Positions 128-44,332 of a DNA stretch of 52,521 nucleotides are shown here, one piece after another. The notes under the pieces are model-generated. The model was not told the origin of the DNA. It was given only the letters and a program-made list of their open reading frames with translations, and ran no database searches. Positions within the stretch are counted from its first letter, which is position 1; each line of letters begins with the position of its first letter. This DNA comes from a virus (Duplodnaviria; Caudoviricetes): IMG/VR virus record IMGVR_UViG_3300020137_000002, positions 1-52,521 of that record, one strand, 5' to 3'. A program made the translations under genes and the position numbers.

Positions 128-949
128 GGAGTTGATGCCGTTGGAAATGATTCCTCGGTCGGTGGGCATCTGGGTGAAGAACAGTGCGTCATGGCCCTGG
201 CCGGTGTGCCATTGGGTCAGCCCGCTTGAATACTGGTTCTTGCTCAGGCACGCCACTGCACCATAGAAATCAAGGTCACCGTCCACCTCACCGAACATGC
301 GGAATGTCACACCGTTGGGACCGGCGATACCGGAGTTGGTGATGCCATCCGTTTCCGTGTCGATAAGCACAATCTCCGTGGGGTCTTCGTCATCGTCAGC
401 CTGGTATTCGAAGCCAGCGGTTCCGTCTGTGAGGTTACCGTGGAATCCGAAGTGCAGGTAGAATCCCTCGGGGATAGGAATCCACACTTCCCGGAACGTT
501 TCAGTGCCATTCAGGTAGTAGTTGGCGTACTTAACCGGTAGCGCCTTGGTGTTATCCGGCGTGTCGTATACGGCAGGGCGAGTAGCATCCTTACCGGCGA
601 GGTTCTTACCGTCTAGTCCGGCCTTCCACGGGGACGCCCAGCAGTCAGGCATGATATTAGTTGCCGCCGCCCACGGGTCCACCCAGTAAATGCCGTCCGT
701 ACCGTAGTCGCCATTGGCGTAGGCGAAGATGATATCAATCTCCTCATCCCGCGCCAACCCCCACGACATTCCATACGACCGGGAGGTGCCTGCCGAACGC
801 TTTACACCCTTGGTACCGTTGAGGCGGTCTGACACGCTAGACCACCCAGCAGAACTGCGGTCAACGTCCCTGCCAGGTGCGGGAACCCATGACATGAGGT
901 TCTGGGTGCCGAAGTAAATCTTGCGGTCTTTGGTGAAATCCGTGGTCAT
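89..949 (-). CDS. minor tail protein (distal tail-like)
   Basis: 286 aa, immediately downstream of tape measure; call is positional. Confidence 0.7.
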   Translation of the reverse strand: MTTDFTKDRKIYFGTQNLMSWVPAPGRDVDRSSAGWSSVSDRLNGTKGVKRSAGTSRSYGMSWGLARDEEIDIIFAYANGDYGTDGIYWVDPWAAATNIMPDCWASPWKAGLDGKNLAGKDATRPAVYDTPDNTKALPVKYANYYLNGTETFREVWIPIPEGFYLHFGFHGNLTDGTAGFEYQADDDEDPTEIVLIDTETDGITNSGIAGPNGVTFRMFGEVDGDLDFYGAVACLSKNQYSSGLTQWHTGQGHDALFFTQMPTDRGIISNGINSFRAVECTLVEAE

Positions 950-951
950 AC

Positions 952-3900
952 TTAAGACCTTCCTACCGTGCTCACGTTACGATTATAGTTGTTCACTGAC
1001 GTGGCGATTTGGCGTCCGTCAAGGTTCAGTTCAACCACCATCATCTTAGCCAGGTTACGGAGCGTGTTAGGGCCAAGTTCGGTGTACCCAGGGCCACTCA
1101 CGAAACCCCCACCGGCGTAACTCGGGGCAGGTGCAGTGGTACCCCGTGACAGACGGTTCAGGGCGTCAGCATAGGGCAACCCGGTGGACTGATTCACGTC
1201 GCGGGCCGGGATAACATACTCACCACGGTGAACCTCACCCGCCGGTTCGTACTTTCCACCTCGACCCGTGAAGCCTCCGGTGGCATACCCGACAAGGGCC
1301 TTGCGCTTCTTCATTAGGGCGTCAATTTGAGGTTGAACATACTTCACCAGGTTAGGGTTATACTTACCCGCAACGAGGGATGCAATCAATGCGTTAATCT
1401 GAGACGTGTATTCGGCGGCTCGCTGGTACTTAGTATTACTCGGGGCCTGGTAGTTCGTCTTGATGTTTTGGGTTGTGGTAACTGACCGATTCTTGTTCTT
1501 GGCGAAGAACTGGTCTAGTGCCTTCTGTGCCGGGCTGGTGTCTGCGTCTGCCTTCACCGTGAGATTACGGGGCACCTTGCTGATGATGCTCTGGAAGTCC
1601 CCAAAGGCCGCCGTGTACTTCTTGATTTCCGCGTTGGTGTACCCCAGGCTGGTAAGTTGAGCCTGGAACTTCTGACGCAACGATTCCGCGTACCGGGCGA
1701 CTTCCTGCTGGGAGTGGCCTGCCGCCGCGTAGGCAACAATGAGGTCCTCGTAACTGCCCAGGAGTTCTAGAACCGAGTTACGCTGGTCGATAGCCGCCTC
1801 AGTGTTTCCGGTAAGGGTAGGCGTAGCGGCCTGCTGGGCCTTGGTGGCATCCTTCTGCTTCTTGGCAAGGTCAGACTGGGACTTAGCCAGGTCTGCGTTC
1901 TTGTCCGCCAGTTCGGCAACGATTTCCTGCTCGCGGAGGGTATCGCCGTACTCACGGGCAACCGTCAACTGGTATTCGAGGATGGCAATGGATGACTGCT
2001 GGCCCATGATGTCAGCCTGAAGTTGCTGAATCTCCAACCGGAGGTCCGCCAACTTGTCGCGTGCATCTGAAAGCGACTGAGCGAGGTCCTGGAACTTGGA
2101 CGTAGCATCATCTGCCGCCTCCTGAAGCCCGAACCGATACTCGAAAGCATCCTTCATCACCGACGACAGGTCGGACACGTAGTCCGCGAGGGTACGAATC
2201 TCCTTAGCGGCCTTACGGGCGTTCGAGGCGGCGCGCCCAGTGTTGTCAGCCACCGAACTCATACCGGTGGCAATCTGGCCGGTGAGTTGACTCTGGGCAA
2301 TCATCTGCGCCGTGGCGGAAGGGTTAGCAAGTCCGGCAAGTGCCGCCCGGATGGGGGCAAGTTGAGCCGCACCAGTCACACCAGCGCCCACCAACTGGTT
2401 GATGATTTCGTGGACGTAGGCTGAGAACAGGTCAGCATCGTCACCTGCAACCTTACCCACCGCTTCCAGGGTGGAGGTGAGTGCTCCCAGGTTTTCGCGC
2501 CCTGCCGCCGTCTGCTCGCTGAAGTCCAGCCCGTTGGTGGCAAGCGAAGCACCCAGGTCATAGGTGGACCCGATAAGTGCGTACTGGGCGTTCAGAAGGT
2601 CGAACATCCCATCCGTGAGGTCATTAAGGGAGTCCCCGTACTCGTTTGCAGACGCCGCTGATTGCTCCATCTCCACGCCTGCCGCCTTATAGGCATTCGC
2701 TTGGGTTTGGGCCAGTGCGATGGTGTCTTGAGTAGTATTGTTAAATAGGCCAACGGAGTCGAGAAGGTCTAAGGTGGCGTAGTTGGCGTCCAATGACCCC
2801 TGCGTGAAGTTCGCAAGAGAGTTTCCCGTAGCGTCAACATTAGCCGTCTCATCCAAAAGCGTTTGAGCAAAATTAGAAAGGGCGGCGGGTACGTTTCCAC
2901 TTTCGATACCCTGGACTATATCATTCATCGTCAGGCCAGTTTTACTGAGCACGTCGTTCCAGGTAGCCAGGTTACTAGCCGCCTTCGCGGGGTCATCCCC
3001 TAGAATAGCGTCCACAAGACCCTTACGGATGGCCTGGTCGGTTACGGCACCTAGGTTGATATACAGTTCGTCCAGGCTTGTATTGAGGTCATCCACCCCA
3101 TCCCTGGCCGTAACTGAACCATCCCCCACCCCTGCCAGCGCGTTAGCCATGTCGTACGCCTGGTTAGCAGAGTCAACAGCGGCATCCCCGGTGTCCTCAA
3201 TCGTAACCTTCAGCCTACGTATAGACGCATCTCCGTTTTGAGTATCCTGGGTAATGGCTTCCCGTAGTGAGGCTCCGAACTCATCGAACTGGTGCTTCGC
3301 CTCCGATGAGCGCTGAGTCAAAAGCGAGATAGCAGTTCCAATGGCTACGACAGCAGCACCGATACCTGTAGAGATGAGGGCCGTCTTGATGGTGCCGATG
3401 GCAATCCTAGCGGCAACTGCCGACCCAGTAAGCGTCTCGATTTCGCCCCGGAGGGTAGCCATGTTGAACCGGGCAATGTTCCCCGACACGGCAAGACCGT
3501 CAAGGGCGGTACGGAGTGCCAGAGTGGAGGCAACCCCAAGAGCCATTGCGCCGAGAATGAGACCCAGGGCACCTGCGACAGCCGTAGCACCCACCGCCAC
3601 TAGCGCAAGGACTTGACCGAACCCGGTGGAGAGGAAGTCGGTAGCCGCCTTAGCCATCCGCGTAAGCAGGTCTACGATAGCCGCAATGGGGCCGGTTGAC
3701 GACTCACCAATGGTACCCAGGAGGTTTTGGAGGTTGTTCTTAAGGACCGTAATCTTGGAGGCCACTGTTTCCGCAACCACGCCATACTGGTCAGCAAGCG
3801 CTGTGCCGTCCTGGAAGCCCTGGCTGGCGATACGCATCTGGTCGGTGAGAACTTCACTGTTCTGCGCCAACTTCAGGATGGTGGGGATGTCACGGGATGC

Positions 3901-4962
3901 GGTGATGCCAAGTTCCTGAAGCACCGAGATAGCCTTCGAGTCCTCAACCCCTCCCAGACCGGTCAGGAATTGCTCTAGGGCACCTGCCGCGTCGTCACCC
4001 CACGCGGTAGCGAACTCCTGGCTTGTGAGGCCCGAAACCTTTCCGAACAACTTCAAGCGGTCACTACCGTCAGACACCGCCGTACTGATGTTCGTGAACA
4101 GGCGGGTGATAACACCACGGGCAAGTTCAGGCTGAACGCCCAGGGACGCCATGGCCGACGACAGACCGATAACCTGGTCTGCCGTGAAGCCCGCGAACGA
4201 ACCCAGTGAGGCAATCTGCGAGGAGATATTGATAATCTGAGACTCAGTAGCCACCGACGACACACCCGTTGCCACGATGGCTGAACCCAGGTTTTCGTAC
4301 TTGGTTGCGGGGACATCAAGAAGTTGTGACAACCGACCAAACGCAGTAGCGGCAGTGTCTACAGAAACATCGGTAACCGTAGCGAACTCAGCCACCAACT
4401 TGGTGAACTCAGCAACGTTTTGCTTGGCGATACCCAACTGACCGGCAAGGGTTCCAATGCGGGTGAGGTCGTTCCACGACTGAGGGATGGAGGTGAACAG
4501 GTCCTCAAAGTCATCCCGAAGGTCGTTCGCCTCCTTGCCCGTCTTGTCCATGTACACGCCGGTGGTGCGTGCCACGTCCGCAAAACGCCGGTCCATGCTA
4601 ATGGCGGTTGCGGTAGATGCCGTGGACAACCCGAGGAGTGCGGCACCTGCAAGGTTCGCGGTCGTCGCAACATCGTACAGGGCATACCGGAGACGGGGTG
4701 CGGAGTTGGCAAACGAGTCTGTAGCGCTTGCCGCCTTCTTCGTGGCCTCCGTTGCCTTATTGGTGGCGTCCGTTGTTTTGGCGGAGGCTTGGCCCAGTTG
4801 CTCCATTGACCGGGCACCATTGGCGAGTTCCTTATCCGTGATGGTGCCCTGCTTGTATAGATTACGCAGGGTCCCCTCTAGTGACTCTACAGCCTTCCGA
4901 GAGTTTTCAGCACCAGTCGTAGTAATGACGAGATTAATCCGCCGGGTAACGTCGCCTGACAC
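952..4962 (-). CDS. tape measure protein
   Basis: 1336 aa, Ala-rich and helical; TP901-type core, hydrophobic segments, C-terminal YATGG...AGEVHRGEYVIPA motif; follows the tail chaperones. Confidence 0.97.
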   Translation of the reverse strand: MSGDVTRRINLVITTTGAENSRKAVESLEGTLRNLYKQGTITDKELANGARSMEQLGQASAKTTDATNKATEATKKAASATDSFANSAPRLRYALYDVATTANLAGAALLGLSTASTATAISMDRRFADVARTTGVYMDKTGKEANDLRDDFEDLFTSIPQSWNDLTRIGTLAGQLGIAKQNVAEFTKLVAEFATVTDVSVDTAATAFGRLSQLLDVPATKYENLGSAIVATGVSSVATESQIINISSQIASLGSFAGFTADQVIGLSSAMASLGVQPELARGVITRLFTNISTAVSDGSDRLKLFGKVSGLTSQEFATAWGDDAAGALEQFLTGLGGVEDSKAISVLQELGITASRDIPTILKLAQNSEVLTDQMRIASQGFQDGTALADQYGVVAETVASKITVLKNNLQNLLGTIGESSTGPIAAIVDLLTRMAKAATDFLSTGFGQVLALVAVGATAVAGALGLILGAMALGVASTLALRTALDGLAVSGNIARFNMATLRGEIETLTGSAVAARIAIGTIKTALISTGIGAAVVAIGTAISLLTQRSSEAKHQFDEFGASLREAITQDTQNGDASIRRLKVTIEDTGDAAVDSANQAYDMANALAGVGDGSVTARDGVDDLNTSLDELYINLGAVTDQAIRKGLVDAILGDDPAKAASNLATWNDVLSKTGLTMNDIVQGIESGNVPAALSNFAQTLLDETANVDATGNSLANFTQGSLDANYATLDLLDSVGLFNNTTQDTIALAQTQANAYKAAGVEMEQSAASANEYGDSLNDLTDGMFDLLNAQYALIGSTYDLGASLATNGLDFSEQTAAGRENLGALTSTLEAVGKVAGDDADLFSAYVHEIINQLVGAGVTGAAQLAPIRAALAGLANPSATAQMIAQSQLTGQIATGMSSVADNTGRAASNARKAAKEIRTLADYVSDLSSVMKDAFEYRFGLQEAADDATSKFQDLAQSLSDARDKLADLRLEIQQLQADIMGQQSSIAILEYQLTVAREYGDTLREQEIVAELADKNADLAKSQSDLAKKQKDATKAQQAATPTLTGNTEAAIDQRNSVLELLGSYEDLIVAYAAAGHSQQEVARYAESLRQKFQAQLTSLGYTNAEIKKYTAAFGDFQSIISKVPRNLTVKADADTSPAQKALDQFFAKNKNRSVTTTQNIKTNYQAPSNTKYQRAAEYTSQINALIASLVAGKYNPNLVKYVQPQIDALMKKRKALVGYATGGFTGRGGKYEPAGEVHRGEYVIPARDVNQSTGLPYADALNRLSRGTTAPAPSYAGGGFVSGPGYTELGPNTLRNLAKMMVVELNLDGRQIATSVNNYNRNVSTVGRS

Positions 4963-4990: not shown

Positions 4991-5440
4991 CTATTCTACC
5001 AAACCCTCTTTTTCAGAGTTTACCCAGTCCTGATAGGTCCACAGGGTTTTATCAGTCCTCAAGGAGCGGATATCAGGTACGAAGTATTCACCGGGGGTGG
5101 GCTTGTATTTTGCCGAGCCGGTGATGGACTCAATGGATGCCTTAAACTGGTCAATTTTCCGCTTGGCCTCAATAGACGCCTTGGGGTCCTTCTTGGTCCA
5201 CTCGGGGATGCCATTATCGTCAGTGAACGCCTCAATTGTCTGGTCAGCCGCCGCCAGGGCGAAATCCCAGTCAATCCATTCGTCGCGGTCCCCCAACGGC
5301 TCACCCGTGAGGGGGTCCCTATGTCCGAACCATTCATCCCGCATGAGCATGGAGGAGGGGCGCTTGCCCCACACCCCCGCGCTTTGGATTACTGGTCGGT
5401 AGAATCGGGCTCCTCCGTCTGAGAGGGCTGTGACAAAAAA
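4991..5440 (-). CDS. tail assembly chaperone, -1 frameshift extension (gpGT-like)
   Basis: The -1 frame after GAT TTT TTG (5434-5440) reads FVTALSDGGARFYRPVIQSAGVWGKRP into ORF 4991..5374. Confidence 0.85.
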   Translation of the reverse strand, partial: FFVTALSDGGARFYRPVIQSAGVWGKRPSSMLMRDEWFGHRDPLTGEPLGDRDEWIDWDFALAAADQTIEAFTDDNGIPEWTKKDPKASIEAKRKIDQFKASIESITGSAKYKPTPGEYFVPDIRSLRTDKTLWTYQDWVNSEKEGLVE

Positions 5441-5982
5441 TCAAGGCCCTGCACCAACTGCTCGTAACCACGCTCCGCGTTGTCCCGTAGGGAGGCGATA
5501 GCACTTGCAACGGCGTGAATGCCGGAAGCGGGAAGAAGTTTGAGCATAGCGGCGATATCGTCAGGGGTGGGGACGACCTCGGAACCATCCGGGGACTTCA
5601 CCTTCACCACGTACAGTTCCCACTCCAACTGGGCAAAGTAGTCCTCGGCACCGGGGTCCTGGGTGGTCTCTCCGAAGGCCGACTTGGTAATGGGGTACTT
5701 AGCCAGTACCTTCTCGGTCAGCGTCTTCAAGATGTGACGGGGGACACCGCGAACAGTGAACTCGTAGATGTCGCCCTCAAGAGCCTTCTCCACCTGGACA
5801 CGGGCCTCTTCAAGTTCCTTCGATGCAGGGTTTTGGTACGCCAGGTCGGTAGCCTTCGCTAGGGCATACATACCGGCCTCGTCAAACACCACCCTCACGG
5901 TGTCCTGAGGGTAGGACCGCCCGGTAAGTGCGGCGATAAGGTCAAACGTCTTCGGGTTGTTCAGGTCATCGTGAGCAGTCAT
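5389..5982 (-). CDS. tail assembly chaperone (gpG-like)
   Basis: 197 aa, upstream of tape measure, slippery T TTT TTG near its 3' end. Confidence 0.85.
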   Translation of the reverse strand: MTAHDDLNNPKTFDLIAALTGRSYPQDTVRVVFDEAGMYALAKATDLAYQNPASKELEEARVQVEKALEGDIYEFTVRGVPRHILKTLTEKVLAKYPITKSAFGETTQDPGAEDYFAQLEWELYVVKVKSPDGSEVVPTPDDIAAMLKLLPASGIHAVASAIASLRDNAERGYEQLVQGLDFLSQPSQTEEPDSTDQ

Positions 5983-6050
5983 CCGGATAGCCCCTTCTAG
6001 TAGTTCCTCTTACCCGTACATTCTACCACGCCCCGTTTTTGGGGTACGAA

Positions 6051-6083
6051 AAGACCCGCCCACTGGTACGATGGGCGGGTTTC
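6051..6083 (-). terminator. intrinsic terminator
   Basis: ACCCGCCCA/TGGGCGGGT stem followed by a T-run on the minus strand. Confidence 0.75.
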
Positions 6084-6088
6084 GCGTG

Positions 6089-6307
6089 TCAGTCGGTAAG
6101 AATACCCGCCTGCACAAGGACGTCCACGAGGGACTGAAGGTCCGCCGCCACGTCACCGGCATCCGCAGGCTCGTCGTTGATAACAGGGGCCTCCGTGGGG
6201 GTGAAGTCAGCGCCGGGAATGTCACCCACCACAACAAACGGCTGGGGGGTGAGTCCCGTGTAGGACTCCTCAGAAACCTGAGTGAGGCTAATGGGCTTGG
6301 GGTCCAT
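6089..6307 (-). CDS. small virion protein, head-fibre-like
   Basis: 72 aa, SD AAGGAG; C-terminal ADLQSLVDVLVQAGIL resembles head-fibre C-terminal helices. Confidence 0.55.
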   Translation of the reverse strand: MDPKPISLTQVSEESYTGLTPQPFVVVGDIPGADFTPTEAPVINDEPADAGDVAADLQSLVDVLVQAGILTD

Positions 6308-6342
6308 TCTTTTTCTCCTTATGAAAGGTAAACGTCCTCACA

Positions 6343-7995
6343 CTAGTATACCACCTTGGAGTACCTAATCTTCCCGGCGTCGTATATCCGCTCCAAGCCG
6401 TTAAGTTCAGCCAATTGTCGCTCTGTCAACCCGTCCGCGTAGAGCAGGTGCGGGTCTTTTCGAAACCGAGCCTTGCGGTAATTGAACTTGTGTTCCCTAC
6501 GGTCCCCCGCCACATACCAGTAGTCAGGTGGGGTTTCCCCTGAGACGGTAAACCCAGCGGATTCGTACAGTCGTCCTGTAGAAACATCCCTAGCGGCAAA
6601 TGTCACCCACTCTTGCACATCTAGTTGCTTCTCTACATAGGCAAGGAGTTTAGTGAACCCGCCCCTCACTAGGGCGTTGGTGGCAAACCGTATAATCTCG
6701 TGGGGTCCCTTCTTACGGTGCTTCACCACCAGGACGGCACGGATATCCCCCTCGCTATCCCGAAGGGCGTAACTCTTACCGGCGGCGTACCCCTGAATGT
6801 GGTTCTCGTCAAGAAAAACGCGGGCCTCCTGGGATGTAACCGGGGCACACGTAAGGTCGCGGGCGTTTACCTTCATCTCGTCCGAAAGCCCAATCTTACG
6901 CAAGAGGGTCTTCTTCACCACATCCTTACGGTACTTCCAGTCATCCTCCCACACGTGGATAAGCGTCACCCCTGCTTCTTCGCAAGCCTGCGTCTTGGAG
7001 AGGTGCTTTGACCTCCCTACACGCTTCTCAGTGTGCCAGTACAGCCCGTTGAACTCAATAGCCACAGACCTCTCCGGGAGGTAGATATCCAACTCCATTG
7101 GGTGTATGAGGCTTCGGTTGCTTGTCTCCACCGTGGTGACCGTGGAGAGCCATTCTGCAAGTTCGGTTTCAGGGGTGGATACTCGGGGTGAGCATTTAGG
7201 GCAGTTGTACCCATCTGTCCTGTCGGCAAGGCGGGACTCCCATTCATGCCCAAACGCACACGTCCAACGCACCCGGTAGGAACTACTCTCGGTCACCTCA
7301 CTAGGCCCCCTATCGTTGTCAGGGTGCCACTGGGCGGCCAACTCCGGGTTGAGGGTCGCCAAGTCGTTAAACCCAGGGGACACAACGCGGCCTGAGCATA
7401 CAGCACACCCGGAGCCCTGCTTAGCCCGGTTCTGAACCTTAACAGCCCACTCATGTCCCTTAGAGCACACCCACCAGGCTCGATAATGACTCCCCGCCGT
7501 GACCTCTTGAGGTGTCTTCTCGTTGTCAGGATGCCATTCCGGCAGGAGTTCAGGGTTAGTGGTAGCAAGGTCGTTGAAGCCTGCCAGGACCCGCTTGCCG
7601 GTGCAGAACGGGCACCCCTGCCCGCCTATTGTCCGGTTGTAGACGGGGGACTCCCATTCGTGGCCGCAAGACCCAAGCCACCATGCCTTCTTGCCGGTTG
7701 CGCCCGTTACCTCCGAAGGGGTGATGGTGTTACGCGAGGGGTGCCACTGGGAGGCCACGTCTGGGTAGCGGGTGGCAAGGTCATTGAACCCAGAAAGAAC
7801 CTTCAGGGGGTTAGGGGCACAGTAAGGGCACCCTTGTGACCGGGACGCACGAGATTGCACCGTAGCGTGCCATGTATGGCCGCACGGTCCCACCCACTCC
7901 GCCTTGTACTGGGAGCCGTACGTCACATCCTCTGGGGTTCGGTCGTTACCGGGACCCCACTGTTCTGCCAGTTCAGGGTGTGTTGTTGCTAGCAC
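6343..7995 (-). CDS. Hef-like endonuclease with 4 zinc-ribbon (DUF4379-like) repeats and a C-terminal Mom/GNAT-like region
   Basis: GTG 7995 with SD GAGGAGG; four LAT..PEL...W..GH.W...R...CxxC repeats; ELDIYLPERSVAIEFNGLYWH nuclease motif; FLDENHIQG...RFA...GGFTKLL...LYESAGF tail. Confidence 0.8.
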   Translation of the reverse strand: MLATTHPELAEQWGPGNDRTPEDVTYGSQYKAEWVGPCGHTWHATVQSRASRSQGCPYCAPNPLKVLSGFNDLATRYPDVASQWHPSRNTITPSEVTGATGKKAWWLGSCGHEWESPVYNRTIGGQGCPFCTGKRVLAGFNDLATTNPELLPEWHPDNEKTPQEVTAGSHYRAWWVCSKGHEWAVKVQNRAKQGSGCAVCSGRVVSPGFNDLATLNPELAAQWHPDNDRGPSEVTESSSYRVRWTCAFGHEWESRLADRTDGYNCPKCSPRVSTPETELAEWLSTVTTVETSNRSLIHPMELDIYLPERSVAIEFNGLYWHTEKRVGRSKHLSKTQACEEAGVTLIHVWEDDWKYRKDVVKKTLLRKIGLSDEMKVNARDLTCAPVTSQEARVFLDENHIQGYAAGKSYALRDSEGDIRAVLVVKHRKKGPHEIIRFATNALVRGGFTKLLAYVEKQLDVQEWVTFAARDVSTGRLYESAGFTVSGETPPDYWYVAGDRREHKFNYRKARFRKDPHLLYADGLTERQLAELNGLERIYDAGKIRYSKVVY

Positions 7996-8025
7996 TCTGC
8001 CTCCTCTCAATCGCCCCAGTGTAGC

Positions 8026-8066
8026 ACAAAACCCCGGCCAGCCTGACTGAGTACCGGGGTTGTTGT
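8026..8066 (-). terminator. intrinsic terminator after the tail tube genes
   Basis: AACCCCGG/CCGGGGTT stem with T-run. Confidence 0.75.
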
Positions 8067-8074
8067 GGGTGAGG

Positions 8075-8869
8075 TTAGGAGACGGTAACTGCCACGGTGT
8101 CGTTGTCACCGGTTACCGGGTCGGTTACGGTGACCGTTGCAGTGTCAGTGGCCGTACCGGTCACCTTGTAGAAGCCACCGGGGTACACATCGATAACCGT
8201 TGCGTCGTCCGTGGTGAACTCAAGGTAGCAGGTAACATCGCGGCCCTGCTGGGCGGCGCGGATGCGGCCCGTAGAACCAGCGGCGAACGACGCCGGTTCG
8301 ATGGCCGTAACGGCGTGGTCACCGGCCACAACCACGTGGCTGAACTCAGTCTTGGGGATGAACGACGCGACATACCGCTTCGACTCGCCCGGCGTGAAGG
8401 GGTTGGTCTCACCCTCACGCTGAACACGGTAGACAGACACGAAGTCACCATCAGCCGCATCCTCGGACTGGTCCACATCACCGTCGATACGAGTGGCGAT
8501 ATCCACCTTTGAACCGGGGGTGTCAATCATATCGTACAGATTGGAGATGAGGTTCGAAGAGTCGTCGTACGCCTTGGGGTAGTACGGGCTGAACGAGCCA
8601 CCAAAGTTGGCAAGACCGAACGTCTCAGCGGTGGAGGCGTCAGCAAGCGAAGGCTCGTTGTTCGTCTCGGAAGCGTCCATACCGAACGACCAGTCGTTGA
8701 AGGAGATAGCCTCCGCAACGGAGAGCATACCCGACGCACCGCCGGTGTTGTTCAGTTCAACGGGAAGCGGCTCACCCACGTTGGTGACACCAAACGCGCC
8801 ACCAGTGGGGCCAATGAACACCGCGATGTTCTCGTTGGCAACCGCCTTCTCAATATCCTTGTATGCCAT
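8075..8869 (-). CDS. major tail (tube) protein paralogue 2 with C-terminal Ig-like domain
   Basis: GEPLPVELNN motif parallels SAPTDDELNA of the upstream tube gene; C-terminus FTTDDATVIDV...TATVTVT...VAVTVS is Ig (Big_2)-like. Confidence 0.75.
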   Translation of the reverse strand: MAYKDIEKAVANENIAVFIGPTGGAFGVTNVGEPLPVELNNTGGASGMLSVAEAISFNDWSFGMDASETNNEPSLADASTAETFGLANFGGSFSPYYPKAYDDSSNLISNLYDMIDTPGSKVDIATRIDGDVDQSEDAADGDFVSVYRVQREGETNPFTPGESKRYVASFIPKTEFSHVVVAGDHAVTAIEPASFAAGSTGRIRAAQQGRDVTCYLEFTTDDATVIDVYPGGFYKVTGTATDTATVTVTDPVTGDNDTVAVTVS

Positions 8870-11125: not shown

Positions 11126-11537
11126 ACCTACCTACTGGGTAAGGTGCCGCCTCCAGGTCACACAAGCACCCCATCCCTGCAATCTCGAAAATGTCACCCT
11201 CACCGGCGGAATCAGCAATAGCGTCCCATCCTGCCGCCGCTTCCAGAAGATTACTTGCCCGCTTAGTAAGGTCGGCTGAGAGGTCGTGGTCCTTAACGGA
11301 GATACTCTTCTTGGCCGCATCTCCCGCAAGACGCCGGTAATATGTGGCAATGGCGCGAGGGACTGAACCGCTAGACAGTGAAAGGAACGTCTTAATCTCA
11401 ACGTCACTCAGTTCAGCATAATTACCTGACCCTTCTACTTCAGGGTCGAAAGGGGTAAACTCTGTATCCCCATAGGCCAGCCTGAATTGTCCCACCGGGG
11501 TGTCAGGGTTAAGTGGCGCAACGCCTACGTTTGACAT
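11100..11537 (-). CDS. head-to-tail adaptor
   Basis: VGQFRLAYGDT...LSDVEIKTFL motif; SD AGGAGG; follows the major capsid gene. Confidence 0.75.
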   Translation of the reverse strand: MSNVGVAPLNPDTPVGQFRLAYGDTEFTPFDPEVEGSGNYAELSDVEIKTFLSLSSGSVPRAIATYYRRLAGDAAKKSISVKDHDLSADLTKRASNLLEAAAGWDAIADSAGEGDIFEIAGMGCLCDLEAAPYPVGRCGCGPLIF

Positions 11538-11569
11538 GGTAAAACCTCCTGTGCCTATTCTACCGTATA

Positions 11570-11654
11570 GGGAAAGACCCCCGGAGCGGAGAGGGACGCT
11601 TCAACGGGGGCCTTTCGTGCAGGGAACCGGAGAAGGGGAATCCTGAAACCTGCT
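11570..11654 (-). ncRNA. candidate ~85-nt small RNA with two C/U-rich loops
   Basis: Own GGTAGAAT promoter-like element (11661-11668) after the capsid terminator; two hairpins, the second terminator-like; no ORF. Confidence 0.55.
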
Positions 11655-11686
11655 ATTCCTATTCTACCGTATGTTTTAGGGGATGG

Positions 11687-11722
11687 GAAAACCCCCGCCA
11701 GCATTAGCCAGCGGGGGTTTCC
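11687..11722 (-). terminator. intrinsic terminator after major capsid
   Basis: AAACCCCCGC/GCGGGGGTTT stem with T-run. Confidence 0.8.
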
Positions 11723-11732
11723 ACGAGTGGGT

Positions 11733-12872
11733 TTAGTTGCCGTCACCCTCGGAGTGGAGGCCGTACACGCCGCTCCACACGATACCGCCACACACGTAGC
11801 GCACGCGGTAGTCAATGGTGTCGTTGTCCCAGGAACCCTGGTTGAACGGAACCACGGCAGAGGAACCGAGGTACACGCCGGTGTTGCCATTGGCGCGCAG
11901 TTCGGGGGCCTCGTAGCCACGCAGGCGACCGAGTTCGATGAACGGACGGTTGAACGAGCCGGGCTTCGCCAGGATGTACCAGTTGGTACCGGTGATGTAC
12001 GGGGACTCGATGACGGTAACGCCGTTGAGGGCGGAACGGTCACCGGGGCCGAACGTAATCGAACCATCCTGAATCGAGATGATGGCCTGGTTCAGTGACC
12101 AGTCGATAAAGTCCTTCACGCCGACCGGCACGAGGACGTTGTAGCCACGGGGCGAACGACCCACCTTGCGACCGTTAACCGTCTTGTTAGACAGTTCGAT
12201 AATCGCCTGCCAGATGGCATTGGGGCTGATGGGGGCGTTAGCGACAACCGCAGTACCGTCAGGAAGGGTACCGCCCGCAAGAGTCGTGGTCACACCGCTG
12301 ATAACAGCCTGGTAGACCTCGCGCTCCTCGGTGTCCAGGGCCAGGTTAACGAGGTCGGAGGGGAGGTTTCCGTAGAAGCCCTCCACGTCGTTAATCTGCG
12401 ACTCCCACGTGAAGCCGAACTTCGCACCCTTCTTGGTCACCTTCGCGTAGAACGCCTCCTTACCGGAGATGGTGACGTAGGGGTACGGGGCCGCCTCGGG
12501 AACGTCCGGGAGACCACCGGTGAGGCCCTGAGCGTCAGCGCCCTCGGCAACACCCGCGCCCGAAAGGTCATTCAGAAGCGAGTAGAGTCGGACGTTGTTA
12601 AACGTGGACACAGTGCGGACATCCGCGATCTGGCTCCACGTGCGCTCAATCTGGTCAAACTGCGGGATAGCCGTAGCGGAGACCAGGTGAGCCAGCGCGA
12701 ACGGCAGGTCAGAGGTCGTGTGGACCTCAGCAAGTTGACCTGCCGCAATGCGGTCACCGCGAAGGGCGGCACTCAGGAGACGGTCGGCCTCTGCCACCTT
12801 GGAGCGGGTAACGCTGGGGTGAGCAGGCTTGAGACGACCATCAAGAGTGAACTGGTCCTTGAAGTCAGTCAT
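11733..12872 (-). CDS. major capsid protein
   Basis: 379 aa, strongly biased codons; EVHTTSDLP, KKGAKFGFTWESQIND and DTIDYRVR motifs of Mu gpT-like/HK97-fold capsids. Confidence 0.9.
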   Translation of the reverse strand: MTDFKDQFTLDGRLKPAHPSVTRSKVAEADRLLSAALRGDRIAAGQLAEVHTTSDLPFALAHLVSATAIPQFDQIERTWSQIADVRTVSTFNNVRLYSLLNDLSGAGVAEGADAQGLTGGLPDVPEAAPYPYVTISGKEAFYAKVTKKGAKFGFTWESQINDVEGFYGNLPSDLVNLALDTEEREVYQAVISGVTTTLAGGTLPDGTAVVANAPISPNAIWQAIIELSNKTVNGRKVGRSPRGYNVLVPVGVKDFIDWSLNQAIISIQDGSITFGPGDRSALNGVTVIESPYITGTNWYILAKPGSFNRPFIELGRLRGYEAPELRANGNTGVYLGSSAVVPFNQGSWDNDTIDYRVRYVCGGIVWSGVYGLHSEGDGN

Positions 12873-17379: not shown

Positions 17380-18960
17380 CTAGAAGTAGATGGAATCCTC
17401 GTAGAAAGGGTCACCTGCCACCCACGGGGCAATGGCATCCGGCTCGATAGGCACCTTAGCGCCCGGTCGGTACCCGTCTGCGTGCTCCACCCACGGGCTG
17501 AGGTCCACCGCCGCCAGGATAACCGCGTCCATCCGGTCGGGCGACCCACCCAACTCTGTCTTCAACTTCGCCTTGGGGGTAATCTGGACGCCACCGCGCT
17601 CCTTGAACCGATAGGTGATGATTTGAAGTTCATCTTGAAGTTCCTCATCCTCCAAGTCCAAGTCGATAAGCCCCTCCATCATCTGAGTACGCAACGAGTC
17701 GTGGGCATATGCCCTCCGGTTGGCCCATCGTGACAAGTCAGGGGAGGCCATGCCGTTATCCCACCCCACTATGTCGTAATCTGCGTCGGCAAACTCCTCC
17801 TGCCGGGTCAGCATGTCATACACACCTGCGCCCACACCGCCAGAGTCAAGTCGGACCTCTACTGCGCCACACGACTTAGCGTACTGGTGAATGCGTCGTG
17901 CAGAATCAACCGTATCTGACTTGCCCCACGTGTCCACCACCCGAATGCGACCCCCACGGTTTTCCGCAATAACGGATTCATCAACACCCATGCGTGCAAT
18001 ATCCACGCCCAGAATAACGGGGGTATCGTCTGTGGGTTTAATGTCGGTGTCGATGGCCTTGTTAATGGCTGATTGCGGGAAAAACCCAAACCCGCCGTCC
18101 TTGGGAAACTCGCCAAGCACCTTAGACAGGTACCGCGCATCATTTTCACCCCACACCCGCTTTTTATGCTCCACCCACGACACTTGGGTAAGGGACTCCA
18201 TAATGCGCTTTTGCATTTCCGGGTCGTCCGGGTAGACAACCTCACCGGTAAATGTCGGCAAGTCAAAACTAGACAACGTGAAGCGGTTAAACTCGTTTTC
18301 GTACTTCTTATCTGTGAAGATGCGGTACCACTCAGCCCCAGGGTCATCCGGGTTGCCAATGGCGTTGAGTCGAGCATCCGAACCCGTGAGTACGGCCTCC
18401 GCCGCCGTCCACATGCCCCGTGATAGCCCGCCTGCCTCGTCAAAGAACACAAACGTCTTACCGAACTCCGAGCGGACACCCTGAAAGGTGGCAACCTCTT
18501 GACCTGCGGCAGGCTTACGCCCGTACACCAACGGGATTTTACCTTCCGGCCCCTGCACGCTATATTCCAGCGTCTCCGAAATATGACCCGGCAAGTCAAA
18601 GCCCCGCTCTTTAGCGCGAGCCTTAAACGACTTCATATACCGGAAGGTAACCTTTTCCACCTGGGGCAATGAGGGGGCTGACACAATACCAATGGCCTCC
18701 CCCACGTCAAATACGGAACCCACCCACAAACACATCGCGGCTACCAAATACGACTTTGCCGTACCGTTACTCGACTTAATGGCAGTGCGGGGAATCTCAC
18801 CAAACAATGCAGTATTGGCAATCTCTTGCATCTTCTTGTACGTGCGAATCCCAAGAACGTCTGCCTGCCACGCCAGGAAGTCATGTTGGTACAAGTGCTG
18901 TAGCCGCTTGTTGCTAATCTCCGTCAAAGCGTTAGCGGTGACAGTGATGAGGTCAGACAC
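17380..18960 (-). CDS. terL: terminase large subunit
   Basis: Walker A-like SSNGTAKS, Walker B FFDEA, IGNP, nuclease ILGVDIARMGVDES, SPDRMDA. Confidence 0.95.
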   Translation of the reverse strand: MSDLITVTANALTEISNKRLQHLYQHDFLAWQADVLGIRTYKKMQEIANTALFGEIPRTAIKSSNGTAKSYLVAAMCLWVGSVFDVGEAIGIVSAPSLPQVEKVTFRYMKSFKARAKERGFDLPGHISETLEYSVQGPEGKIPLVYGRKPAAGQEVATFQGVRSEFGKTFVFFDEAGGLSRGMWTAAEAVLTGSDARLNAIGNPDDPGAEWYRIFTDKKYENEFNRFTLSSFDLPTFTGEVVYPDDPEMQKRIMESLTQVSWVEHKKRVWGENDARYLSKVLGEFPKDGGFGFFPQSAINKAIDTDIKPTDDTPVILGVDIARMGVDESVIAENRGGRIRVVDTWGKSDTVDSARRIHQYAKSCGAVEVRLDSGGVGAGVYDMLTRQEEFADADYDIVGWDNGMASPDLSRWANRRAYAHDSLRTQMMEGLIDLDLEDEELQDELQIITYRFKERGGVQITPKAKLKTELGGSPDRMDAVILAAVDLSPWVEHADGYRPGAKVPIEPDAIAPWVAGDPFYEDSIYF

Positions 18961-27188: not shown

Positions 27189-27678
27189 CCATGATGAGCG
27201 GGAGGCCGCACGGGAGCAGATTACCGCCGCGTATGACCGTTTGCAGGCGGTGCTGGTGGCAAAGCGTGCCGAGGTGAAGGCGCGTGTGGAGGAGATGGTG
27301 GATGCGGAAACTCAGGAGGAGCGTGCCGAGTTCGCACGGTTGCTCCATCGGTACCATGAGTCAGGGTTGCCAAAAAACATCATCAGGCAGGCCACCCGAA
27401 AGGCGGGGAATGCCCCCGGATTCGATAAGTTGTGGTTTGCGGCACCGCCCCCTGACGTGGACTTGCGTCGGGCCGTGCAGGTGGAGGCCACCCCGGAGCG
27501 GGAGTACGAAATCCTCAGTGAGAACAGTATCTACATCCCGGCGTTCGATAAGACACTGACCGGTATCGACCGTGACGATGTAGCCGTGTGGTGGGATGGG
27601 GACACGGACGTGGAGGGTGAGTACACCGCCCTGGTGGGCATCGTGCAGGCATTCCTGAAAGAGAGGGATTCTGCGTGA
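27178..27678 (+). CDS. hypothetical protein
   Basis: 166 aa, SD AAGGAGG. Confidence 0.7.
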   Translation: MMLNHDEREAAREQITAAYDRLQAVLVAKRAEVKARVEEMVDAETQEERAEFARLLHRYHESGLPKNIIRQATRKAGNAPGFDKLWFAAPPPDVDLRRAVQVEATPEREYEILSENSIYIPAFDKTLTGIDRDDVAVWWDGDTDVEGEYTALVGIVQAFLKERDSA

Positions 27679-27869
27679 ATGAGTGGACTTTCCGGGTGAA
27701 GGACGGTAGGCTGACAGCGTACAAAAACGATGAGAAGTATGCTACGGTTGCGTTGGACGCCAACCCGGAGACGGCGTACCTGGTGTACGAACGGCTGTTT
27801 GAGAGGACAGGGTTTGAGTGGTGGGGGGCGCTCATGGACTACTACAAGAAGGAGGCAACACATGTTTAA
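27675..27869 (+). CDS. hypothetical protein
   Basis: GTGA overlap. Confidence 0.6.
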   Translation: MNEWTFRVKDGRLTAYKNDEKYATVALDANPETAYLVYERLFERTGFEWWGALMDYYKKEATHV

Positions 27870-41857: not shown

Positions 41858-41935
41858 GGGGGTGATATGGTATCGACGTTGGGTAAAGCCGCACGCGGTC
41901 CCCGGCGGACTCGGGTTCGAATCCCGACACCTCCA
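41858..41935 (+). ncRNA. miniature tmRNA: tRNA-like domain only, no tag reading frame
   Basis: Acceptor GGGGGTG/CACCTCC with G3.U70 and discriminator A; stemless D-loop ATATGGTATCGA; helix CGTTGGG/CCCGGCG; GAC linker; T-arm TCGGG-TTCGAAT-CCCGA; GGTAAACT at 41841-41848. Confidence 0.88.
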
Positions 41936-41977
41936 CTATCGGATAGCAATGAGAATCGAGAGAAAGGGGATTTGACT

Positions 41978-44332
41978 TTGACCACCCTCCACACCGCGCT
42001 GGCTCTCGCTGAACTAGGTTTGCATGTCTTCCCCTGCCGCGCCACGAGTGAAGTAATAGGAGGGGTAACCTACGGGCCTAAGTCACCGTACCCTGCGGAT
42101 GGGTTCTACTCAGCATCCACCGACCCGGACACTGTTAAGGGGCTGTGGCGTGACCACCCGGATGCGCTAGTGGGCGTTGCCACTGGTGTTAGTGGCCTTA
42201 TCGTGCTGGATATCGACGTTAAGGACGGTGTGGACGGGTACGAGTCCATCATGGAGGCGTGGGTTGCCATCCCTGAGACGTTCCAGTACGAAAGCACTAA
42301 CGGCAAGGGTGCTCACTACGTGTACACGGCCCCGGAGGGGCACTTCCCGCCCGCTCACCCCTACCGGAAGATGAAGGGCGTTGACCGACAGTCTGGCGGC
42401 TCGTATGTCGTGTGGGCCGGGGGTGTGCCGTCCAGCCGTGAGGAGTTCGCGGAGGCACCCCAGTGGTTGTGTGACGCTGGGGAGGTCCGTAGCGCTTCCG
42501 CTTTTGAGGGTACGGTGCGGGACTGGTACGAGTCGTTGGAGCCGGGAGAGCCGAACATCCTGGTGCGTCGTGCCATCGCCCGCGTGAACGACGACATGGG
42601 CCACGGTGACATGGTGAAGGCCCAGTATGAGGCTATCCGACTGGGTGCAGAGGGTAACCCTGGTGTTCCTGAATTGTTGGAGCGTCTGGAAGAAGCGTGG
42701 TTGAACCGTCCCGGTGAGAACCACACAACCCCGGAGTCGGAGTGGGAGTACAAGTTTGCCGAGGCCCTGGCGTCCGGTATCGAGGAGTACGGCGGCACCA
42801 TCCAACTGAGGGCGGACTTGCCGGATTACCACTTGGACCTCATTCCCAACGGGGCACCGGCGCAATTGTTCACCGCGTCGGAGGACAAGCCGACGTGGAC
42901 GGAGATGCTACGTGCGCTCCTGGTTCTCATCCCGGATGATATGGACCTCCTGTCGGTGATGTGGTCTGCGCCTGCCACAAAGCACCTGTCTCGTGAGTGG
43001 GGCTTGCAGTTCGTGATGAACCGCATTGCCCAGGGACGCACCACGCCACCCCCACCGGAAGGCAACCCCATTCTTTCGGAGCGCAAGGTGGACAACAGCC
43101 GGATTAGCCTATTGACCCCTGAAGAGAAGGAGTTCGTACGGGCACACCCTACGTTCATTGACCTCTACTTGGATGCGGCGTCCCAGAAGGGTTTCTTGAA
43201 CCCGCACTACGATATTCCAGCGGCGTGGACACTGTTAAGCATGGCGTTTGGGACGCGGGCGATTATCCCTCACGGTAAGCCGTACGGCGTCAACCTGTGG
43301 TTTCTCACGTTGGGTGAGTCAGGTACCGGTAAGACGAGCAGTTACGACCTTCTGCGTCAATCCCTGGACCTCATGTTTAAGGACGGTGAGACGTTCTACA
43401 ACCTGGGTGCTAATTCCAGCCCCGAGGGTATGCATGAGGCGTTGCTGAACCGTGATGGTAAGCCGTCTATGATTCTCCATGACGAGGCGAGCGACTTCTT
43501 CAGTGCCCTCACTAAGAAGGATTGGCTTTCCGGCCTGAAGGACCAACTGGCCCGGTGGTATGAAGGGATTGTGGACCCGTCCAGTAAACTCCGATTGAAG
43601 GAGTTGAAGGGTAAGAGCGCCAAGACCTCGTTTGATATCAACTTCATGGCAACTCCTGACCGGTTGCTGGGTCTCATCAACACTGACATGTTCGAGACCG
43701 GATTCCTTGCTCGGTTCAACTTTGGGTGGGCTGACGACCCGGTGGATGACGACCGCAAGTACAAGGTCACCCGCCGTCATGTCACGGACACGGGAGCACC
43801 CCCGGAGGCGTATGCTTTGGTGGCTGACCTGTTCTTTGCGCTGAAGGGGTTACCCCCGCTGGTTCTCATGGACTGGACCCAGGAGGCAGAGGATTGGCTG
43901 TTCGAGGCCCACAAGCAGTTTGACGGCATTGCCAAGAAGCGGGACCACTACGAGGCTACCGGCCCGGCAATCACTCGACTGAAGGAGACCATGTGGAAGT
44001 GCGCGGCGCTCCTGGCCTTGTGGCGCGGTGACCGGGTTATTAACGAGGTTGACGCCATGACGGCAATCATGTACGCTGAGGAGTGGCACAACAACATCTA
44101 CCGGGTGGTGGAGGCGGCAGGTAACGGCCAGTTCAACCAGGACTGCGATAAGGTGGAGGCTCACGTCCTCGCCAATCCCGGTATCACCCACGCGGCGCTG
44201 ACGACACGATTCCGGGGAATGATTGACAAGTCCCCCCGTGAGTTGGAGGACCGCATTCAGGCGTTGGTGACTCAGGGGAGAATCACATCAACGCATAAGG
44301 ATGGTAAGGTCCGGTTCTACCCGAACGTTTGA
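41978..44332 (+). CDS. bifunctional primase-polymerase fused to a P-loop (DUF3987-like) helicase domain
   Basis: VFPC, GFYSASTD, VGVATG, VLDID, GAHYVY; GESGTGKT, HDEA, GFLARF; TTG 41978 with SD AAGGGG. Confidence 0.9.
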   Translation: MTTLHTALALAELGLHVFPCRATSEVIGGVTYGPKSPYPADGFYSASTDPDTVKGLWRDHPDALVGVATGVSGLIVLDIDVKDGVDGYESIMEAWVAIPETFQYESTNGKGAHYVYTAPEGHFPPAHPYRKMKGVDRQSGGSYVVWAGGVPSSREEFAEAPQWLCDAGEVRSASAFEGTVRDWYESLEPGEPNILVRRAIARVNDDMGHGDMVKAQYEAIRLGAEGNPGVPELLERLEEAWLNRPGENHTTPESEWEYKFAEALASGIEEYGGTIQLRADLPDYHLDLIPNGAPAQLFTASEDKPTWTEMLRALLVLIPDDMDLLSVMWSAPATKHLSREWGLQFVMNRIAQGRTTPPPPEGNPILSERKVDNSRISLLTPEEKEFVRAHPTFIDLYLDAASQKGFLNPHYDIPAAWTLLSMAFGTRAIIPHGKPYGVNLWFLTLGESGTGKTSSYDLLRQSLDLMFKDGETFYNLGANSSPEGMHEALLNRDGKPSMILHDEASDFFSALTKKDWLSGLKDQLARWYEGIVDPSSKLRLKELKGKSAKTSFDINFMATPDRLLGLINTDMFETGFLARFNFGWADDPVDDDRKYKVTRRHVTDTGAPPEAYALVADLFFALKGLPPLVLMDWTQEAEDWLFEAHKQFDGIAKKRDHYEATGPAITRLKETMWKCAALLALWRGDRVINEVDAMTAIMYAEEWHNNIYRVVEAAGNGQFNQDCDKVEAHVLANPGITHAALTTRFRGMIDKSPRELEDRIQALVTQGRITSTHKDGKVRFYPNV

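Follow-up and report, generated by a model that had tools for sequence, protein, structure and literature searches.

The window considered here (the entire analysed stretch, a viral record of 52,521 bp that has direct terminal repeats and looks complete) carries its structural genes on the minus strand, from ~1 to 21 kb, and its replication and other genes in a plus-strand block from ~24 to 49 kb. The structural block contains a gene for the major capsid protein, an assignment that relies on tblastn matches, at 28-30% identity, to 66 phage records whose annotation is major capsid, and also on matches to PHROG head families. An earlier note on this DNA had described a particular minus-strand order downstream of that gene: the capsid stop codon, a terminator, a 15-mer, an insert devoid of open reading frames, an identical copy of the 15-mer, and then the next gene. 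That order is readily seen in the sequence (Table 1). The capsid terminator consists, in a fold of positions 11735..11540, of a 15-pair stem followed by UUUU, and a similar hairpin follows the capsid stop codon in related phages.

Table 1. Features of the minus-strand region between the capsid gene and the gene that follows it (window coordinates).
Feature	Position	Strand	Description
Major capsid protein gene, 379 aa	11733..12872	-	From the ORF list; stop codon TAA (11735..11733) precedes the unit
Intrinsic-terminator-like GC-rich hairpin and U run, after the capsid gene	~11687..11720	-	From sequence and fold
Promoter-like 15-mer ATACGGTAGAATAGG, first copy	11658..11672	-	-10 TAGAAT at 11666..11661, 7 nt before the base of hairpin 1
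ORF-less insert, 89 nt	11569..11657	-	Between the two identical 15-mers
Predicted small RNA, ~83-86 nt	11572..11654	-	Predicted 5' end A11654 or G11653; predicted 3' end in the UCUUUCCCU run
Hairpin 1	11619..11653	-	Stem GCAGG/CCUGC, inner GGA/UCC; loop exposes UUCCCCUUCUCC (11640..11629)
Hairpin 2	11572..11616	-	Terminator-like 12-pair outer stem, UU bulge, inner stem; apical loop UCCCUCUC (11596..11589)
Promoter-like 15-mer, second copy	11554..11568	-	-10 at 11562..11557, 19 nt before the ATG
First post-capsid gene, 145 aa	11100..11537	-	ATG at 11537; Shine-Dalgarno AGGAGG at 11550..11545

The insert folds to -36.7 kcal/mol, compared to -25.8 +/- 3.1 kcal/mol for shuffled versions of itself (z -3.53; a single one of 200 shuffles did equally well), and its first hairpin begins one to two bases past the predicted 5' end of the RNA. 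Both predicted apical loops are unpaired, and each contains UCCC. The proposals that this is an ORF-less unit with a -10 element and a terminator-like end of its own, and that it forms two hairpins exposing C/U-rich loops, are therefore both upheld by the sequence and the fold. A coding reading was also considered and rejected: in the Microbacterium phage PhillyPhilly an ATG is found 6 nt past the corresponding -10 element, but there is none in Wolfstar, Hortus1 or Jacko, and the insert in the window contains no ATG, no GTG and a single TTG. Searches with structural descriptors were of limited discriminating power. With a loose descriptor, which asked for a hairpin enclosing a pyrimidine run, 280 kb yielded 16 hits as compared to 8.2 in shuffles, and a strict one (promoter, hairpin and T-tailed terminator) missed true members because an A run pairs with their U run. 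Since a pyrimidine-run hairpin alone is not rare, the weight of the argument must come from position, promoter and conservation.

The 15-mer that flanks the insert has five matches at three or fewer mismatches, where 0.57 would be expected, and none of 100 shuffles reached five; the first copy was also picked up by a sigma-70-like promoter scan. Its core, GGTAGAAT, occurs at six positions between genes on the strand of the structural genes (19512, 15835, 11668, 11564, 6027 and 5000), five of which would serve protein-coding genes, all five with leaders of ~16-37 nt that contain a Shine-Dalgarno (SD) sequence; the sixth precedes the ORF-less insert. Because the same word of 12-15 nt stands before other late operons, it is best regarded as a promoter consensus of the structural operons, rather than as the scar of a duplication. 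A search of IMG/VR for the exact 15-mer returned 15 single matches in unrelated contigs, which were taken as chance. The promoters, and likewise the predicted start and end of the RNA, are putative assignments made by consensus.

No DNA is shared between GenBank phages and either the capsid region of the window or (by blastn) the unit itself. Relatives were instead recognized through their proteins: capsid homologues with 44-79% identity in IMG/VR and JGI metagenomes (by a protein-guided search), and homologues of the first post-capsid gene in IMG/VR (by a three-protein alignment) and in 33 GenBank records, comprising 32 of Microbacterium phages (with ISF9 present twice) and that of Pan2. Ten distinct uncultured contigs have DNA upstream of the post-capsid gene homologue, and in seven of them (L024, L026, L027, L038, L028, L032 and L041) the unit lies directly before that gene's promoter, as an all-pyrimidine-loop hairpin followed by a GC-rich, terminator-like hairpin. 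L042 harbors a three-loop version, L040 has a pyrimidine-loop hairpin without a complete unit, and L044/L045 display no unit upstream of the gene. Nine GenBank phages were inspected, and eight contain the unit (PhillyPhilly, Wolfstar, Hortus1, Jacko, ISF9, Fork, Yuma and Pan2); it is absent from Cassita, four further Cassita-like phages lying outside the nine. By blastn the PhillyPhilly type of the unit is found in 14 records and the Fork type in 11. By our reading, at least 25 cultured and freely available Microbacterium phages carry the unit.

In 15 of the 16 family sequences the unit is directly upstream of the promoter of the post-capsid gene, and in the remaining one (L042) it is one ORF away. 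Cargo is inserted between the capsid gene and the RNA, never between the RNA and the post-capsid gene; even in the ED1 phages, where the capsid gene and the RNA lie several genes apart, the latter is still joined to the homologue of PhillyPhilly gp38 (PMC7302621). In 14 of the 16 sequences the first stem is preceded, at a distance of 5-9 nt, by a TAnnnT hexamer (the null expectation being 5%), although the 16 represent only ~12 lineages and a binomial value for this placement overstates their independence. The exceptions are L027 and L038, in which a -10-like hexamer abuts the stem; in these two the RNA may correspond to a 3' UTR, that is, to the 3' end of the message of a small upstream ORF. 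A search of sequencing runs for the stretch turned up two DNA runs and no RNA run containing it. A near-identical phage from the second DNA run has a base change and one inserted base at 11657, which increases the spacing between the -10 element and the predicted start from 7 to 8 nt, and has an identical RNA body, an identity that is uninformative with regard to constraint since the two sequences differ by only ~8 positions per 1800 nt.

All 13 of the members that were folded form stable structures (z -3.5 to -7.2) in which the pyrimidine run is unpaired in an apical loop; each has at least one apical loop with eight or more consecutive pyrimidines, followed by a GC-rich, terminator-like stem. 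Folding across relatives had been put forward in the earlier note as a check on the idea, and the outcome is that the members fold well and their loops stay pyrimidine-rich. The stems of hairpin 1 are unrelated in sequence between lineages, each being fully complementary nonetheless; a word in hairpin 2, GUUGA(A)GCG...CGCUCC, is common to the window, L042, L026 and L024. Two forms can be distinguished, one with two hairpins (the window, L024, L026 and L042) and the other with a single long hairpin (Cluster ED and ISF9), and these are linked only by position, by design and by the intermediates L041, L042 and Pan2. Because family-wide alignment with MAFFT failed on hairpin 1 and shifted the registers in hairpin 2, covariation was counted on the Cluster ED/ISF9 group only. 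In that alignment base-paired cells make up 89.2% (a level reached by 0 of 500 shuffles), both partners have changed in 5 of 21 pairs (17 of 500 shuffles), and the covariation score is 0.232 versus 0.136 (2 of 500 shuffles, with slid controls at or below 0.102).

Pan2 (L054) is a Pseudanabaena phage recorded on a cyanobacterium. Its positions 240..400 contain the same promoter word (GCGGTAGAATGG) together with a pyrimidine-loop unit of three hairpins that resembles those of actinophages, and its homologue of the post-capsid gene is 34% identical (E 2e-4).

The slot behind the capsid gene is variable in its other contents. In L039 (the same as L021) 33 tRNA genes lie in a row in the slot after the capsid terminator (5238..8608), and in L003 at least four tRNA genes follow the capsid terminator (4393..4933) before the end of the contig is reached; the slot has thus been used for RNA genes in the lineage of the capsid relatives. 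L039 itself, which is 29,697 bp long and has a phage capsid gene in addition to the 33 tRNAs, is binned as Candidatus Omnitrophota, and looks like a phage contig that was placed in a bacterial bin. Other cargo is found in the slot downstream of the capsid gene in L020, L023, L024 and L038. The N-terminus of a cargo ORF in this slot appears to resemble GIY-YIG homing endonucleases, and an ORF with collagen-like G-x-y repeats occupies positions 3673..4224 of L004.

The gene that follows the unit in the window encodes a protein 37% identical to PhillyPhilly gp38 (E 1e-24). Its sole PHROG match is phrog_18316, for which no function is known, and it gave no Pfam hit; in Cassita the next gene is annotated as a head-to-tail stopper, and the 145-aa product can be termed a putative head-to-tail adaptor by position only. 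In 10 of the 16 family sequences this gene looks leaderless (a TAnnnT element, 6-7 nt and then the start codon), and in the other six (the window, L026, L024, L027, L038 and L042) it is led by an SD sequence. The late genes of the window phage have weaker SD sequences than its early genes (P 0.0004, with heuristic gene calls), as do those of PhillyPhilly in comparison to its early and non-structural genes combined (P 0.009, with curated starts). Leaderless-looking starts occur in 5 of 27 late genes of PhillyPhilly and in 1 of its 45 others (23 rightward early and 22 leftward non-structural genes), the five being three that were flagged as leaderless-like together with gp38 and gp45 (TAGAAT, 7 nt, in-frame ATG).

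The earlier note had suggested that late messages, being leaderless, would escape from an RNA that silences SD-led messages. For the window phage itself this fails, in that the leaders at all five of its protein-coding late promoters contain SD sequences; the relatives are more accommodating, with their leaderless-looking post-capsid genes and the weaker late SD sequences, and there is some support for a lower SD dependence of late messages across the family. Some individual starts in PhillyPhilly (L055) deserve mention in their own right. The annotated ATG codons of gp38 and gp45 (at 17903 and 22605) lie inside the TAGAAT of the promoter-like words TGTAGAAT and GATAGAAT, and an in-frame ATG four codons downstream would make each message leaderless; for gp32, gp34 and gp35 a TGnTAnnAT word is separated from the start codon by 6 nt.

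The anti-SD sequence of the ribosome has CCUCC as its core. This core is found in an apical loop in 13 of the 16 family sequences, extended to CCUCCUU in several, and is repeated just 3' of the stem in the Cluster ED phages. The window, L026 and L024, which are three of the six sequences with an SD-led downstream gene, lack CCUCC and have loops with CCCCUU, CUUCC or CCCUCU words in its place. Pairing of the window loops was assessed against a heuristic list of 81 starts (including 44 on the plus strand, designated 'early', and 27 late), in which the choice of starts favours SD sequences. Loop 1 pairs with late and early ribosome-binding regions at -14.4 and -16.9 kcal/mol, respectively, as compared to -11.6 kcal/mol for intragenic windows, and the corresponding values for loop 2 are -9.4 and -11.0 as compared to -7.7 kcal/mol. 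Pairing with early regions is better than with late ones for both loops (P 0.013 for loop 1 and P 0.023 for loop 2), a difference that tracks the strength of the SD sequences themselves. Shuffled loops of the same composition pair as well in 50 of 100 cases for loop 1 and in 22 of 100 for loop 2: the pairing potential is an effect of composition.

Two individual targets had been named for the RNA in the earlier note. Both sites exist as described: GAGAGGGA, complementary to loop 2, is found at 27661..27668, 6 nt before the GTG of a 64-codon ORF, and AAGGGGA, the proposed partner of loop 1, precedes the TTG at 41978 of the Prim-Pol ORF. However, the former 8-mer is present three times in the window where 1.94 are expected (26 of 100 shuffles reach three), the Prim-Pol site is fifth in the pairing ranking among many similar sites, and shuffled loops pair equally well, so that neither site can be singled out as a target. 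The 64-codon ORF (27675..27869, plus strand) has a GTG that overlaps the stop codon of the preceding gene (GTGA), and is absent from the heuristic gene list. The loop words do not co-vary with the SD words of each phage: GGAGG is found in 33 of 81 ribosome-binding regions of the window, whose loops are without CCUCC, and in 15 of 80 in PhillyPhilly, whose loops have it. Judged by eye, complementarity between the loops and the SD sequence of the downstream gene itself follows no consistent pattern, and the SD sequences carried by late genes of the window phage would pair with the loops as well.

Taken as a whole, the comparative evidence makes it very likely that the unit encodes a real, independently transcribed and structured small RNA (sRNA). 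The further reading, that the insert is an sRNA gene of an uncatalogued actinophage family whose product acts in trans on purine-rich ribosome-binding regions, stands at about even chances. According to that reading, a lineage of actinobacterial siphophages would have kept, immediately before the promoter that serves the first post-capsid gene, a non-coding RNA of ~85 nt, which would be transcribed from an extended -10 promoter of the host type (in the window phage, from a word identical to that of the structural operons), with the transcript starting at the base of hairpin 1 and ending at hairpin 2. The apical loops, of which there are one to three, would present tracts consisting solely of pyrimidines, with the CCUCC anti-SD core in most relatives; these would pair in trans with purine-rich ribosome-binding regions of host messages, early phage messages or both, and would lower the translation or the stability of those targets, while messages less dependent on a strong SD sequence would be spared. 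The sequences themselves show the anatomy of the unit, its conservation, the covariation of its structure and its potential for pairing, and transcription and its timing, pairing in vivo and targets are what we infer from them; by analogy, the most economical mechanism would be that of the C-rich and CU-rich-loop sRNAs of Gram-positive bacteria. A bolder extension, which we consider unlikely, is a takeover of translation in lytic actinophages by RNA only, whereby an abundant RNA made together with the structural genes would present copies of the docking sequence of the ribosome, mask SD sequences throughout the cell, and divert ribosomes to late messages that are leaderless, translationally coupled or weak in their SD sequence.

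Several other explanations of the unit must be weighed against a trans-acting sRNA. One is a cis-acting insulator, in which a long GC-rich hairpin stops transcription of the capsid gene or cargo before it enters the promoter of the next operon, the RNA is a by-product, and the C-rich loops reflect no more than a habit of actinobacterial terminators. The unit does always abut the downstream promoter, the Cluster ED RNA consists of a single long hairpin with a weak U run behind it, and the next gene is so often leaderless-looking that read-through would leave it untranslatable in those 10 sequences; moreover, the paper on the 6C sRNA quotes a hypothesis that C-rich stem-loops serve as alternative terminators (PMC6486639). 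However, a separate promoter would be superfluous for an insulator, and a -10 element precedes the first stem at 5-9 nt in 14 of 16 sequences; the window already has a capsid terminator upstream, and the extra hairpins that have a pyrimidine loop as their sole conserved feature (hairpin 1 in the window, and two in L042) are unneeded for termination. This explanation is improbable. An attenuator or leader, with transcription stopping at hairpin 2 or reading through according to a factor bound to the pyrimidine loops, would match the classical layout of promoter, structured leader, terminator and gene, and the SD sequence retained by the downstream gene of the window would make read-through RNA translatable. 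Against it are a full second promoter-like element, which in every one of the 16 sequences separates the terminator from the gene, the lack of an SD sequence before the gene in 10 of the 16 (such that read-through RNA would go untranslated), and folds in which no competing antiterminator appears and in which the outer stem of the ED form encloses everything; its probability is accordingly very low.

The RNA might also serve as a decoy which, by mimicking the 3' tail of 16S rRNA, soaks up a pyrimidine-tract protein (a host defence toxin of the MazF kind, or ribosomal protein S1) and does not act on mRNAs at all. RNA-cleaving toxins of the MazF kind cut C/U words. The prevalence of CCUCC in apical loops (13 of 16), its extension to CCUCCUU in several and its repetition 3' of the stem in the ED phages would all suit a decoy, as would the absence of any specificity of the loops for the phage's own ribosome-binding regions; the Cluster ED phages additionally encode an RNA ligase and a polynucleotide kinase, which their describers tied to RNA-cleaving defences (PMC7302621). 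Yet the three closest members (the window, L026 and L024) have no CCUCC, and no candidate partner protein is encoded beside the unit, and a decoy can be given only a small probability. The fallback offered in the earlier note, of a non-functional remnant left by a duplicated terminator-promoter or a deleted gene, could appeal to the two identical 15-mers on either side of the insert, and to the use of the post-capsid slot as a cargo site in relatives (for tRNA arrays and for endonuclease-like and collagen-like ORFs). It is contradicted by the comparative data and retains next to no probability: conservation of the unit at the same place in relatives excludes it, the unit is kept across lineages whose proteins are only 37-60% identical, the stems covary and the loops are conserved, and the 15-mer is a late-operon promoter consensus rather than a scar.

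The trans-acting sRNA that we favour has recognizable counterparts, none of them a homologue. A search with all 4227 models of Rfam 15 gave no match at the locus, either at gathering scores or at E up to 10 on 11500..11760; eight relatives likewise matched no Rfam 15 family, and did not match 6C at E up to 5. The 6C sRNA (B11) of Actinomycetota, which are high-GC Gram-positives, is also a small stem-loop RNA, probably from the same phylum as the host of this phage, and the runs of six conserved cytosines in its C-rich loops bind G-rich ribosome-binding sites and repress translation without a chaperone (PMC6486639). The window RNA is unlike 6C in that its loops, UUCCCCUUCUCC and UCCCUCUC, are mixed C/U tracts with a longest C run of 4, in having neither a covariance-model match nor shared sequence, and in being borne by a phage and tied to a structural operon. 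In Bacillota, LhrC presents its hairpin loop, linker and terminator loop as redundant CU-rich sites that bind the SD region without a chaperone (PMC4132741), and the UCCC or CU-rich motifs in both a hairpin loop and a terminator loop of the window RNA resemble LhrC and also RsaE, RNAIII and FsrA in design rather than by homology. The action proposed for the window RNA, occlusion of the SD sequence, would likewise be of the LhrC type; however, LhrC-type RNAs belong to a different phylum and show no homology to the window RNA (no Rfam match), and they are chromosomal, stress-induced and have validated targets, in contrast to a phage-borne prediction (PMC4132741).

Among viral RNAs, the sRNAs DicF, AsxR, c4 and svsR of enterobacterial phages and prophages similarly base-pair with host or phage mRNAs (c4 near a ribosome-binding site), but they do so with specific seeds and mostly depend upon Hfq, whereas the window loops are generic anti-SD-like tracts (PMC12197685). 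That review of phage sRNAs gives no example from actinophages, and the terms 'mycobacteriophage', 'Actinobacteri-' and 'Gram-positive' do not occur in it (PMC12197685). Actinophages are nonetheless able to produce abundant RNAs from gaps between genes: highly transcribed intergenic non-coding RNAs have been described in Rhodococcus phage WC1 (nc_1-3, by RNA-seq) and in mycobacteriophages D29 and Kampy, at the ends and in the middle of the genome and with no pyrimidine loops described, unlike the unit behind the capsid gene (PMC10986025). The description of Cluster ED mentions neither the unit nor any promoter, stem-loop or terminator in its main text, although its supplementary genome maps might mark the gap (PMC7302621).

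C-rich and CU-rich-loop sRNAs that act by base-pairing are thus known from bacterial chromosomes, and most known phage sRNAs come from prophages of enterobacteria; neither the literature searched nor Rfam 15 yielded a conserved sRNA linked to structural operons in lytic actinophages. The family described here would be an uncatalogued one, with a mechanism that is plausible on present sequence evidence. The closest functional analogue of its proposed role is RegB of phage T4, an endoribonuclease that inactivates early messages at the GGAG of their SD sequence and shifts expression to later genes, but which is a protein nuclease, unrelated in sequence or mechanism. If the RNA does mask ribosome-binding sites, it would constitute an RNA counterpart of such protein-based shut-off of early messages, and would tie leaderless late genes to a selective advantage. 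Because the unit is present in cultured Microbacterium phages with laboratory hosts, the idea is directly testable.

One further RNA-like feature was encountered on the plus strand of the window, in the gap before the Prim-Pol gene. At 41858..41938 there is an 81-nt match to the tmRNA family of Rfam (RF00023; 70.8 bits, E 1.3e-25), which was not called by ARAGORN and in which the 5' end of the model is connected directly to its 3' end, with the middle skipped, so that it comprises the tRNA-like domain only, with no tag-coding part. It could be part of the host's ssrA gene that has been retained as an attachment site, or else a tRNA-like RNA of minimal size.
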